From IMG/VR virus record IMGVR_UViG_3300027902_000006, positions 32,001 to 96,000 of that record: a DNA stretch of 64,000 nt, one strand, 5' to 3'. Below the pieces are notes generated by a model, which worked only from the letters and a program-made list of their open reading frames with translations, was not told the DNA's origin and did not search any database. Origin of the DNA: a virus. The translations under genes were made by a program, and so were the position numbers. Positions 45,364 through 46,654 of the stretch are shown piece after piece (the stretch's first letter is position 1; each line of letters opens with the position of its first letter).

Positions 45364-45438
45364 TGGAGCGGGATGTAGGATTCGAACCTACATTCCCGAC
45401 CGGGCAGGTCGGGTCCTACCAACTTAAATGAATCCCGC
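45364..45438 (-). tRNA. tRNA-Gly(GCC), atypical
   Basis: GCGGGAT/ATCCCGC, U73, CCA; CCGAC-CTGCCCG-GTCGG; weak D-stem, C37. Confidence 0.85.
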
Positions 45439-45514
45439 TGGGGTCCACGGTGGGGCTCGAACCCACAACTCAGAGTTTTAGAGGCTCCTGCTCTACCTAT
45501 TGAGCTACGCGGAC
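45439..45514 (-). tRNA. Amber suppressor tRNA (anticodon CTA)
   Basis: GTCCGCG/CGTGGAC, D GCTC/GAGC, GGAGC-CTCTAAA-ACTCT, T GTGGG-TTCGAGC-CCCAC, C73, CCA. Confidence 0.88.
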
Positions 45515-45813
45515 ATTGCAAGTTTAAGAGAACGAAAGACCCTCTCGTTATCTGTGACAGTGGCGAGTGCCGTAACCTCATTACCTATATCAGATTCCTT
45601 GAATGTCACAAAAGGGACGCCAAGGAACTCCAACTCCACACTCCAACGATAGAGCCGCTCTTCGTCTGGTACTCCAAGATAAACAAGAGTACCATTTGGC
45701 CAAGAACTTTTAGGTCCGCGAAGAAGATACTCAGCCACGGCATGTCCAGCTTGGACGGCCTGTTGAGCAACGGATAAATCTTCGCGGACCAAGACATAGA
45801 GTTTCTCATCCAT
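45505..45813 (-). CDS. Peptidyl-tRNA hydrolase 2-like protein
   Basis: 'KLYVLVREDL....AVQAGHA', 'F.E.DIG...TA', 'L.L' end. Confidence 0.75.
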   Translation of the reverse strand: MDEKLYVLVREDLSVAQQAVQAGHAVAEYLLRGPKSSWPNGTLVYLGVPDEERLYRWSVELEFLGVPFVTFKESDIGNEVTALATVTDNERVFRSLKLAMSA

Positions 45814-46110
45814 TAGACGCCTCCCGAGGAGGATGTAAACGAAGCCATTCCTCATTCGCTTCATCTACTCTTCTTCGGAGGGCGTCTTTTAGTGGATCAA
45901 TTATGTGCCAGTTGGGTTTATTGAATTCACCGGGTTTTTCGATTTGCTCGTAAGAACGACCTCGCACAAGACAATAAGCAATGTGCTCATGTCTGTACTT
46001 TCTCGCTGCTACATAGATTTTCCAGTTAGCGCCGCGATCTTCTTTACGAGTTGTCTTTAGAGTTCGGATACTTCTTGCCATGTCCTTCAATTGTTCTTTC
46101 TTTTCAGTCA
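45806..46110 (-). CDS. Hypothetical phage protein
   Basis: 'RH.HIAYCL.RGRSYEQIE' conserved-looking phage motif. Confidence 0.6.
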
Positions 46111-46209
46111 TCGGATGCACTGTGAATCTCCTTGAATTTTTTTTTTGTATACTACAAGTTGGAGAAGTGCACTTCAAGGAGGTCCACGGATCTACGGTGG
46201 GATTTGTAT

Positions 46210-46563
46210 CTACGTCATTTGAACCTCCCATCTTCCAAGATGGTCTTTGACCTCGAATTTTAGATTTTCGGGTTTCATGGCTCGCTCAACCGATTGAGCT
46301 ATTGTCTCTCCAGTAGAGATTTCCGAGACTTTTATTTTAAGCCATACTTGAAATCTCTGACTTGATATCAAATGACGAAAGGCGATCTGCTTGTTCCGAT
46401 GTTGGGATTTTTCCGACCTACTTTCACCGACAGCACCGGAGACGGGGTGCGTTATACGAACGGCTGTCTCTACTCTATTCTGATGTTGTCCTCCAGGACC
46501 ACCGGCGGTGAATGTCTGGACTTTAAAATCCTTTTTGGTCAGAGTAAAAAGACGCTCTCGCAT
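46210..46563 (-). CDS. Class I release-factor-like GGQ-domain protein (peptidyl-tRNA hydrolase domain only)
   Basis: 'GGPGGQHQN...TAVRI.H..SG.......KSQ..NK..AF'; no codon-recognition domain. Confidence 0.88.
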   Translation of the reverse strand: MRERLFTLTKKDFKVQTFTAGGPGGQHQNRVETAVRITHPVSGAVGESRSEKSQHRNKQIAFRHLISSQRFQVWLKIKVSEISTGETIAQSVERAMKPENLKFEVKDHLGRWEVQMT

Positions 46564-46579
46564 AGACTTTTCCTCCAAA

Positions 46580-46654
46580 TGGAGCGGATGACAGGAGTCG
46601 AACCTGCAACAATCAGCTTGGAAGGCTGACGTTCTACCATTGAACTACATCCGC
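46580..46654 (-). tRNA. tRNA-Gly(TCC)
   Basis: GCGGATG/CATCCGC, TCAGC-CTTCCAA-GCTGA, U73, CCA. Confidence 0.95.

Follow-up and report, generated by a model that had tools for sequence, protein, structure and literature searches.

An atypical tRNA-Gly(GCC) and a tRNA-Gly-like cloverleaf within mom in a DNA-modifying tailed phage

Three glycine tRNA-like elements at one locus

The stretch analysed here, called the window throughout, comprises 64,000 nucleotides of the viral record IMGVR_UViG_3300027902_000006 (bases 32001–96000 of a 140,478-bp record, labelled G000 and estimated to be 92% complete). Its source is a tailed phage of about 140 kb, a heavy DNA modifier that carries seven tRNA genes. 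Six of these belong to the window, all on the minus strand and with ARAGORN and Infernal in agreement, and the seventh, Tyr-GUA, lies outside the window set. An earlier note on this DNA had counted five free-standing tRNAs, two of them for glycine, and had joined the latter with a tRNA-like sequence embedded in a mom gene as three glycine acceptors. The two glycine tRNAs and the three Gly-type elements are real, but the free-standing tRNAs number six and the three elements are not alike in kind. The first, tRNA-Gly(UCC), is an ordinary decoding tRNA common to the nearest relative of the phage, the second is a tRNA mimic within mom, and the third, tRNA-Gly(GCC), is an atypical accessory tRNA. 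The features of the locus are listed below; ORF stands for open reading frame.

44536–44609, minus strand: tRNA-Gln(UUG), last member of the array (ARAGORN and Infernal)
45364–45438, minus strand: atypical tRNA-Gly(GCC) (ARAGORN and Infernal, 34.0 bits)
45439–45514, minus strand: tRNA with anticodon CUA, an amber suppressor that ARAGORN labels 'Pyl' (59.4 bits)
45505–45864, minus strand: PTH2-like hydrolase gene (phrog_1866, 2.5e-8; phrog_3668, 2.3e-6; PF01981, E 0.0029, below the Pfam cut-off)
45806–46231, minus strand: ORF of 141 amino acids with no recognisable family (best Atlas score 0.83)
46210–46578, minus strand: RF-1 (GGQ) domain protein of 122 amino acids (PF00472, 2.7e-17; phrog_3122, 3.4e-32)
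46580–46654, minus strand: canonical tRNA-Gly(UCC), loop CU-UCC-AA (75.6 bits)
46821–46895, minus strand: tRNA-Pro(UGG), part of the core array common to the relative (ARAGORN and Infernal)
48853–49548, minus strand: Mom-family gene (PF25680, E 3.3e-29; the Pfam domain covers residues 41–224)
49430–49505, minus strand: tRNA-Gly-like cloverleaf within the 5′ end of the mom ORF (homologous copies, covariation)
51143–51217, minus strand: tRNA-Thr(UGU), inside the 3′ end of the ribonucleotide reductase ORF (ARAGORN and Infernal)

Read along the minus strand, the ribonucleotide reductase gene (with tRNA-Thr inside) is followed by a gene for an outer-membrane beta-barrel protein, two small ORFs, mom and three further genes. 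Then come tRNA-Pro, tRNA-Gly(UCC), the RF-1/GGQ protein, the 141-residue ORF, the PTH2-like hydrolase, the CUA tRNA, tRNA-Gly(GCC), small ORFs and tRNA-Gln. The RF-1-domain protein is predicted to be a peptidyl-tRNA hydrolase of the ArfB/PrfH kind; the 141-residue ORF matched no family in Pfam, PHROGs, NCBIfam or the Atlas.

The nearest relative found (record label G001; 73,860 bp, 79% complete) has a DNA polymerase 61% identical to that of the phage studied here, and the comparisons made for tRNA-Gly(GCC) rest on one sequence and this one relative. The tRNAs of G001 are Thr-UGU by the ribonucleotide reductase gene, then Gly-UCC, Pro-UGG and Gln-UUG, and the counterpart of tRNA-Gly(UCC) sits in this corresponding cluster. 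G001 contains no CUA tRNA and no tRNA-Gly(GCC), and no RF-1 or PTH2 family proteins were found among the 13 ORFs scanned in its syntenic 18-kb segment. The cassette composed, in order, of the RF-1-domain hydrolase, the 141-residue ORF, the PTH2-like hydrolase, tRNA-CUA and tRNA-Gly(GCC) is therefore accessory.

Structure and likely role of tRNA-Gly(GCC)

General models recognise the element at 45364–45438 as a tRNA: ARAGORN calls it tRNA-Gly(gcc), and its RF00005 score of 34.0 bits lies above the gathering score of 29, although it is the lowest in the window, where the five other tRNAs score 57.7–75.6 bits. As the earlier note had described, the anticodon loop (C32 U33 G34 C35 C36 C37 G38) has a pyrimidine at position 37 and thus departs from the norm of seven-base loops, U33 plus a purine at 37. 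The D stem is equally poor, with an A10·C25 mismatch, one U-A and two U·G pairs, that is, a single Watson-Crick pair. The anticodon stem is perfect, all seven acceptor-stem pairs and all five T-stem pairs (G49-C65, U50-A64, A51-U63, G52-C62, G53-C61) are of Watson-Crick type, the elbow is canonical (G18G19 and the T loop UUCGAAU) and the CCA end is encoded. The A51-U63 pair, also singled out previously, is present but not distinctive: the canonical-looking tRNA-Gly(UCC) has it too. In the minimum-free-energy fold the D arm is absent and the anticodon helix extends to 7 bp, with C32 paired to G38 and a 5-base loop. Base 1 abuts the CCA end of the suppressor tRNA with zero spacer, the two genes standing head-to-tail at the end of the cassette.

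The marginal score, the fold without a D arm, the zero spacer and the singleton status of the element, which has no orthologues, would suit a fossil that does no work as a tRNA and is kept by chance or as a handle for RNase P at the CCA end of the suppressor. The pattern of damage is unlike random decay, with 12 of 12 acceptor- and T-stem pairs, the elbow, the CCA end and the anticodon stem intact. Elsewhere, the suppressor precedes a spacer or various tRNAs, so a special handle is unnecessary. We consider such a fossil improbable.

In bacteria, glycyl-tRNA synthetase (GlyRS) reads G1-C72, C2-G71, C35, C36 and U73, and prefers a purine at position 4 with a pyrimidine at 69 (PMC10464925). The five determinants are all present in tRNA-Gly(GCC), in tRNA-Gly(UCC) and in the mom cloverleaf, and tRNA-Gly(GCC) also fits the preference with G4-C69. 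Because these determinants, G18G19, the UUCGAAU loop and the CCA end are all in place, tRNA-Gly(GCC) is probably charged by the GlyRS of the host.

Binding to EF-Tu was predicted with an additive model of three base pairs (49-65, 50-64 and 51-63) that was calibrated on bacterial tRNAs (PMC3239215, Tables 1, 2 and 4) and to which all EF-Tu values given here refer. The T stem of tRNA-Gly(GCC) yields −10.1 − 0.4 + 0.0 + 1.1 = −9.4 kcal/mol, whereas the mean of the tRNA-Gly(GCC) class is −11.0 (standard deviation 0.39); the element is thus predicted to be weaker by 1.6 kcal/mol, or 4.1 standard deviations. For tRNA-Gly(UCC) the value is −10.1 versus a class mean of −10.8 (standard deviation 0.68). 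The background was a convenience sample of related loci, made up of distinct ARAGORN calls from loci with PTH2-like genes, the nearest relative and this genome (202 calls, 166 distinct, 165 with a three-base anticodon). A class mean was available for 101 of these tRNAs, 23 with unscorable stems and 42 without a class mean being left out. Only two of the 101, tRNA-Gly(GCC) and one Gly-UCC at a metagenome locus (L379), are weaker than their class mean by at least 1.3 kcal/mol, and eight are tighter by as much. Phage tRNA-Gly lean weak as a group, with 8 of 10 above the class mean. By this model, tRNA-Gly(GCC) is a genuine outlier within a tRNA class that drifts in phages. The L379 tRNA is one of two tandem tRNA-Gly(UCC) (L379/L380, 2463–2613), one base apart and upstream of a PTH2-like/CUA-tRNA module, whose T stems exceed the mean of their class by 1.6 and 1.1 kcal/mol and would also bind EF-Tu weakly.

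The loop is similarly rare. Position 37 is A in 137 of the 165 distinct phage tRNAs, G in 26 and C in two, and both C37 tRNAs are for glycine: tRNA-Gly(GCC) here (CU-GCC-CG) and the Gly-UCC of the nearest relative (CU-UCC-CG). The latter, the only tRNA-Gly of G001 (L132 8773–8844, minus strand), aligns better with tRNA-Gly(UCC) of the window than with tRNA-Gly(GCC). It combines the C32/C37/G38 loop with a 5-base D loop that lacks GG, scores 57.1 bits with Infernal and has a T stem predicted to be normal (−10.5). The occurrence of the odd loop on a tRNA predicted to suit EF-Tu, in a relative in which no Mom was found, argues that the loop is a trait of the lineage, tolerated or otherwise selected, and not a signature of Mom. 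The C32-G38 pair was considered as proof that the tRNA does not decode and was dropped: bases 32 and 38 are complementary in 38 of the 165 tRNAs and in 8 of the 12 sampled tRNA-Gly, and the proteogenic GCC tRNA of Staphylococcus aureus is also drawn with an extended anticodon stem (PMC7826273).

Phage tRNAs are known to escape anticodon nucleases by changes in the loop. The rare loop in two non-orthologous tRNA-Gly of two related phages suggests selection on the loop across the lineage, not decay. It could thus be that the C32/C37/G38 loop resists a host nuclease or modifier of tRNA-Gly, and that the neighbouring PTH2-like and RF-1-domain hydrolases, both predicted to be peptidyl-tRNA hydrolases in the same cassette, clear blocked (e.g. 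N-acetylated) aminoacyl- or peptidyl-tRNA and stalled ribosomes. Toxins of the GNAT fold specialised on tRNA-Gly are described in PMC13219725. Such counter-defence is, however, quite unlikely: no evidence here names a host, a toxin or a nuclease, the module of PTH2 and CUA tRNA is widespread without an adjoining tRNA-Gly, and nuclease evasion leaves the weak T stem unexplained. Furthermore, Pfam scans found no tRNA-repair genes (RtcB, Pnkp/Hen1, CCA enzyme) among 35 window ORFs at E ≤ 0.01, and no genes for GlyRS, a CCA-adding enzyme or tRNA repair at E ≤ 1e-5 among 104 ORFs elsewhere in the genome (104 out of 127 further ORFs of at least 110 amino acids, 23 plus-strand ORFs of the structural region of the window being left out).

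The conserved core of the cassette is the PTH2-like gene with the CUA tRNA. The CUA tRNA directly follows the PTH2-like gene in five of seven viral loci and is present at 53 of 80 metagenome loci with PTH2-like genes, many of which are cut short; the pair is a recurrent phage module. Variants among these loci (L120–L125; L351–L430) include one UUA tRNA and one four-base UCUA call in place of CUA. In other loci the suppressor is followed by nothing, by a Ser, Arg or Thr tRNA, or once by a Gly-UCC two bases on, and none of these resembles tRNA-Gly(GCC). As the tRNA after the suppressor varies between loci, tRNA-Gly(GCC) is simply the next member of the array. Recoding of TAG was dropped as the purpose of the suppressor, because TAG terminates 39 of the 182 ORFs from a simple call and table 11 leaves the long ORFs intact. 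Two minus-strand pairs of long ORFs outside the window (G000:C1, positions 109933 and 99415; 219+513 and 240+276 codons) are in frame and split only by TAG, and are possible read-through targets of the suppressor.

No orthologue of tRNA-Gly(GCC) was found in any of the sequence or neighbour-protein searches. Its exact 15-mer anticodon arm occurs at no fewer than 119 loci in viral contigs, and none of the matches listed lies in a tRNA; a longer pattern that includes the T loop had no match. Blastn against GenBank phages and Escherichia coli genomes returned nothing, and the 24-mer of T arm and acceptor had no match in 185,579 species genomes. A gapped acceptor/loop/acceptor pattern matched at least 120 loci in species genomes; none of the 120 listed is a tRNA, and the search is uninformative about bacterial tRNAs with this loop. 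The RF-1-domain protein as query had no relatives in viral contigs. An alignment of SbcC-like proteins gave 38 loci, in which the tRNA cluster appeared only in the known relative and no Mom was matched. Shortly downstream of tRNA-Gly(GCC) lies an inverted repeat, read from the sequence only, with perfect arms of 10 nt at 45245–45254 and 45339–45348 (CCGGGGATGG and CCATCCCCGG); the arms are about 84 nt apart and span most of a 45-codon ORF.

Combining these findings, we propose that tRNA-Gly(GCC) is most likely a sloppy, recently acquired auxiliary phage tRNA and not a purpose-built non-proteinogenic carrier. We give about an even chance to this reading, in which it can be charged but decodes poorly and came in with the tRNA/hydrolase cassette. 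The host enzyme would glycylate it, and the RNase P cut at its 5′ end would also free the mature CCA end of the suppressor. With its weak D stem, C37/G38 and a T stem predicted to be weak for EF-Tu, it may be at best a poor auxiliary reader of GGU and GGC. Among the 2641 glycine codons of the phage, GGA makes up 0.40, GGT 0.32 and GGC 0.11, and GGT and GGC together 43%.

The cloverleaf within mom and the supply of glycyl-tRNA

The tRNA-like sequence that the earlier note had seen in mom is borne out, and its conservation is the strong result of this analysis: it is a mimic of tRNA-Gly that is conserved, linked to Mom in cis and apparently not described before. The window copy is 76 nt long (GCGGUGA…UCACCGC-U-CCA), with G1-C72, C2-G71, G3-C70, U73 and CCA, and lies downstream of the in-frame starts of mom (22–40 nt away) and ahead of the point at which the Pfam Mom domain begins. 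Its anticodon stem is paired at five of the six positions of the family, with C·A at pair 26-43, and its T stem has a bulged A. The copy is outlying in its anticodon loop GUCCCA (CCC for UCC), D loop AAAGACA and T loop CGCGAAU. ARAGORN does not call it, and Rfam over 44000–52000, even at E ≤ 5, reported nothing at the cloverleaf; homologous copies at the mom start of related contigs are called by ARAGORN.

A homologous 76-nt element occupies the same place in seven of the 12 closest Mom loci, and in five Mom starts directly at the domain. No fewer than 84 viral contigs contain a pattern derived from the conserved 3′ half, and 80 of them have a Mom homolog that starts at the element (tblastn E < 1e-5, 26–72% identity). 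The mom gene of phage Mu has no cloverleaf, and blastn of a common copy against GenBank phages found no match. The window copy and 46 other distinct copies were aligned without gaps, eight of 54 with shorter D arms being left out as out of register. Pairing holds in 97.9% of 1034 cells, double changes number 210 versus 61.6 ± 8.0 in shuffles, and the covariation score of 0.55, versus 0.17 in shuffles, was reached by none of 500; slid controls gave 0.065–0.124. Folding of single copies reproduces the cloverleaf.

An extra pair (U-A in 23 copies, C-G in 22) closes the anticodon loop, giving a 6-bp stem and a 6-base loop that is usually AUUCCA. The family is recognised by GCG…CGC-U-CCA, six pairs in the anticodon stem, a NUUCCA loop of 6 nt and a T stem in which an A is bulged; the window copy belongs to it as an outlying member, with its GUCCCA loop and the C·A mismatch. 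The tertiary partners in the D and T loops covary as well, GG occurring with UUC in 22 copies, AG with UGC in 17 and other combinations in eight (n = 47). G1-C72, C2-G71, G3-C70, U73, CCA, C35 and C36 are invariant, the invariance of the 3′ half being partly set by the search pattern and so not independent evidence. That the element is an attP-type tRNA fragment was rejected, as it is of full length, non-canonical and covaries between phages. No description of it was found in the text of PMC13219725 or of the 2023 preprint of that paper, or in literature searches.

In 56 of 62 distinct contexts an ORF of at least 150 codons runs through the cloverleaf. The nearest in-frame start lies 4–22 nt upstream of it in 46 contexts, inside the D loop in seven and further upstream in nine, and the cloverleaf therefore overlaps the translation-initiation region of mom. 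The 6-nt loop should bar decoding. A regulatory or processing element for mom is the most likely role; a cis-regulator or an RNase P target that limits mom expression, the two taken jointly, is more likely than an excised, charged carrier. In the latter case, the Mom clade would bring its own ribosome-invisible glycine carriers: RNase P and 3′ trimming would cut the cloverleaf from the mom transcript, host GlyRS would glycylate it via G1-C72, C2-G71, C35, C36 and U73, and the closed 6-nt loop would reserve it for Mom, with tRNA-Gly(GCC) as a second, free-standing carrier. We regard this as very improbable. If true, it would be the first virus-encoded non-proteinogenic tRNA system, in which the same nucleotides encode an enzyme and its co-substrate.

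The chemistry that makes glycyl-tRNA relevant is known from Mu, the Mom of which moves glycine from Gly-tRNAGly to the N6 of adenine in double-stranded DNA, yielding N6-carbamoylmethyl-adenine (PMC13219725, 2026). According to the same paper, Mu Mom accepts all three E. coli tRNA-Gly isoacceptors and does not use Gly-tRNAAla, recognition of the tRNA is probably at the acceptor end, and two metagenomic Mom homologs are active in vivo. Given this breadth of isoacceptors, a private tRNA is unnecessary. The window protein belongs to the family by PF25680 (102.4 bits versus a cut-off of 27.1), phrog_1384 (7.6e-34) and the Mu structure 8BV8 (E 1.9e-8). With numbering mapped via the delta-10 chain of 8BV8 and the offset checked on H58/Y59, it keeps the equivalents of H58, Y59, R111, S124, D149 and Y159, six of the seven residues that are essential or important in Mu. 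The equivalent of R151, essential in Mu, is E, and that of W48 is N. Activity of the window Mom is putative, and the use of Gly-tRNAGly as donor is known for Mu Mom only.

Free-standing tRNA-Gly is not associated with Mom in the sample examined, and the co-occurrence that the earlier note proposed as a check came out negative. No free tRNA-Gly was found in the flanks covered of the 12 closest Mom homologs (60–72% identical), which hold only Met and Thr tRNAs. Another 84 Mom loci, 843,812 bp in all with their flanks, gave two free tRNAs with ARAGORN, Trp and Met, and again none for glycine. In whole records, searched for 40 of the 84 with longer contigs chosen, tRNA-Gly occurs once, in a record of 155,948 bp (G006) with 36 tRNAs, the Gly-GCC and Gly-UCC of which both have A37 and canonical loops. 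Of those among the 40 records in which the search matched anything, most have one match only, namely the cloverleaf of mom. Eight other records have free tRNA matches, nine of which could be typed in six records (four Met and one each of Ile, Gln, Trp, Arg and Leu); the match in G009 was fetched and not called by ARAGORN, and that in G040 (37.6 bits) is untyped. The Mom gene of the 156-kb G006 record (L499; G006:C1:124000–140000) has a cloverleaf, and the 36 tRNA genes beside it serve nearly all amino acids.

These results bear on a second purpose that could be ascribed to tRNA-Gly(GCC), namely that, once charged by the host, it evades EF-Tu and the ribosome by virtue of its weak T stem, C37, closed loop and weak D stem, and provides a private pool of Gly-tRNA for Mom late in infection, as the non-proteinogenic tRNAs of staphylococci do for the Fem enzymes. 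In favour of this, Mom draws glycine from Gly-tRNAGly and appears to recognise chiefly the acceptor end of the tRNA (PMC13219725), tRNA-Gly(GCC) has every GlyRS determinant, and the window Mom retains H58, Y59, R111, S124, D149 and Y159. The predicted EF-Tu value (−9.4 versus −11.0, 4.1 standard deviations, one of two weak outliers among 101) matches that of the staphylococcal outlier (PMC3239215), and C37 is found in just two of 165 tRNAs. Both Mom and tRNA-Gly(GCC) are absent from the nearest relative, and mimicry of tRNA-Gly already exists at the phage's own mom. Against this, tRNA-Gly(GCC) lies 3.4 kb from mom, with four ORFs of at least 100 amino acids and two tRNAs between, in a cassette with the PTH2 and CUA tRNA core. 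It has no orthologue that could be found, the co-occurrence check of tRNA-Gly with Mom came out negative, and the staphylococcal hallmarks are absent (GCC and not UCC, UUC and not UGY, G49-C65 and not A49-U65). The same loop occurs in G001, with no Mom found and a T stem predicted to be normal (−10.5), phage tRNA-Gly lean weak in general (8 of 10), and the R151 of Mu Mom is E here. No finding of this analysis shows that tRNA-Gly(GCC) is dedicated to Mom, and we consider such dedication unlikely. The observation in the earlier note is confirmed, and its inference of a Gly-tRNA pool diverted to Mom is partly supported: the use of Gly-tRNAGly by Mu Mom (PMC13219725), the GlyRS determinants of tRNA-Gly(GCC) and its weak predicted binding to EF-Tu speak for it, but no specific tie of this tRNA to Mom was found.

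Several points nonetheless weigh against an auxiliary tRNA of no special purpose. A deficit from −11.0 to −9.4 kcal/mol sets tRNA-Gly(GCC) apart from nearly all phage tRNAs sampled, and a T stem this weak by the model is the look that would be expected of a tRNA kept from EF-Tu. Its defects are not random, the D stem and positions 37/38 being odd while the acceptor, T arm, elbow and determinants are intact, and this fits specialisation equally well. At the elbow, no other of the 47 aligned cloverleaf copies is as degenerate as that of the window, which leaves room for a compensating free tRNA. tRNA-Gly(GCC) and Mom are both present in G000 and both missing from G001 (n = 1), no match to Mom being found anywhere in the G001 record, which is 79% complete, so that absence is unproven. 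Furthermore, whether an unmodified UCC anticodon can read the full set of four glycine codons depends on position 32 (PMC7826273). The canonical tRNA-Gly(UCC) has C32 and, if four-codon reading holds by analogy, a GCC decoder may be redundant. Even for the poor auxiliary decoder that we favour, any Gly-tRNA made from tRNA-Gly(GCC) would be available to Mom too, given that Mu Mom can use any of the isoacceptors.

Both elements bear, the cloverleaf more robustly than tRNA-Gly(GCC), on how the phage balances the draw of Mom on Gly-tRNA against translation. The cloverleaf opens to study the regulation, processing or charging of a tRNA mimic by a system that consumes that tRNA. For tRNA-Gly(GCC), the prediction of a chargeable tRNA that binds EF-Tu weakly is the signature that was used earlier to pick out the cell-wall tRNAs of staphylococci. 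Were it a dedicated donor, the use of non-proteinogenic tRNAs would reach beyond cell-wall synthesis in bacteria to DNA modification in a virus; otherwise it exemplifies how far phage tRNAs drift from the rules.

Genomic setting and likeness to known systems

The wider genome is rich in modification functions. A Pfam scan found a 7-deazaguanine precursor set (FolE, QueD, QueE, QueC and a QueF-like protein), ThyX, dCMP deaminase, and several methyltransferases and glycosyltransferases. The 7-deazaguanine set looks complete, lies outside the window (G000:C1, about 100000–105200; L512 4587–9608) next to a ParB-N-domain protein, and comprises QueF-like, GTP cyclohydrolase I, QueC, radical-SAM QueE-like and PTPS/QueD members, from which the phage probably modifies guanine besides adenine. 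By megablast, 8 kb of the window had no match among GenBank phages. Scans for promoters (15 versus 10.3 ± 3.3) and for terminators (7 versus 4.6 ± 2.3) did not exceed shuffles.

In both the phage and its relative, tRNA-Thr(UGU) is contained in the ORF of the ribonucleotide reductase, within its final ~55 codons, on the same strand and starting about 10 nt past the end of the TSCPD domain (window 51143–51217 in ORF 51060–53318, minus strand; relative L132 11389–11464 in ORF 11237–13510, minus strand). Were the tRNA excised, the reductase mRNA would have no stop codon; an ArfB-like protein is among the products of the phage. Between a helix-turn-helix gene and a RusA-like gene, window positions 47740–47824 form a nearly perfect hairpin (about 85 nt), the sole database trace of which is a microRNA family matched below its threshold, at 33 bits versus a gathering score of 97.

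The window Mom and Mu Mom (PDB 8BV8) belong to the same Pfam family, and the phage carries several other DNA-modification genes here. The com-like arrangement of Mu has no counterpart in the window. The mom of Mu lacks the cloverleaf, and Mu has no tRNA genes and relies on the tRNA-Gly of its host.

Elements in mRNAs that resemble tRNAs and bind tRNA-handling proteins are familiar from the thrS operator, T-box leaders and the 3′ tRNA-like structures of viruses. Like these, the mom cloverleaf mimics the tRNA used by the encoded enzyme family, and its overlap with the start of translation is what would be expected of an autoregulatory operator. It differs in that a whole cloverleaf, with U73-CCA, lies within coding sequence, which goes beyond the mimicry of an anticodon arm in a leader, and in that it is translated as the N-terminal ~30 residues of Mom.

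Ordinary phage tRNA arrays include closely spaced pairs processed from one transcript, as in the dimers of the T4 type. The array of the window shares with them a one-strand cluster among early genes, zero to few bases between neighbours, and anticodons that fit often-used codons (GGA 0.40, GGT 0.32). A pyrimidine at 37 (2 of 165) and an EF-Tu outlier (2 of 101) are, however, rare even among phage tRNAs, and among the members of the array stand two genes of peptidyl-tRNA hydrolase type and an amber suppressor, in a genome where TAG is still a stop.

The closest functional parallel that had been suggested for tRNA-Gly(GCC) is with the non-proteogenic tRNA-Gly of staphylococci (NP1–3), the glycine donors for FmhB, FemA and FemB. 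These are characterised by a UCC anticodon, a T loop with UGC or UGU in place of UUC, and the pairs A49-U65, U50-A64 and A51-U63; they carry very few modifications, bind neither EF-Tu nor the ribosome, and form a lineage confined to staphylococci (PMC7826273). The likeness holds in so far as an extra tRNA-Gly is found beside a proteogenic one, in the same genome as a GNAT-fold enzyme that takes glycine from Gly-tRNA, and with U50-A64 and A51-U63 in its T stem. The predicted EF-Tu deficit is also of similar size (−9.4 versus −11.0 here), the staphylococcal tRNA being an outlier in Table 4 of PMC3239215 with −9.5 versus a class value of −10.8 kcal/mol. Of the staphylococcal traits, only the two T-stem pairs and the size of this deficit are in common when set against the S. 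aureus tRNAs of PMC7826273. tRNA-Gly(GCC) has GCC and not UCC, UUCGAAU with G18G19 and not UGC or UGU, and G49-C65 and not A49-U65, and its odd C37/G38 is not staphylococcal. The combination of UCC with a UGC T loop is shared with the NP tRNAs by most copies of the mom cloverleaf and not by the free tRNA-Gly(GCC), which stands outside the staphylococcal family and at most could work like one of its members.

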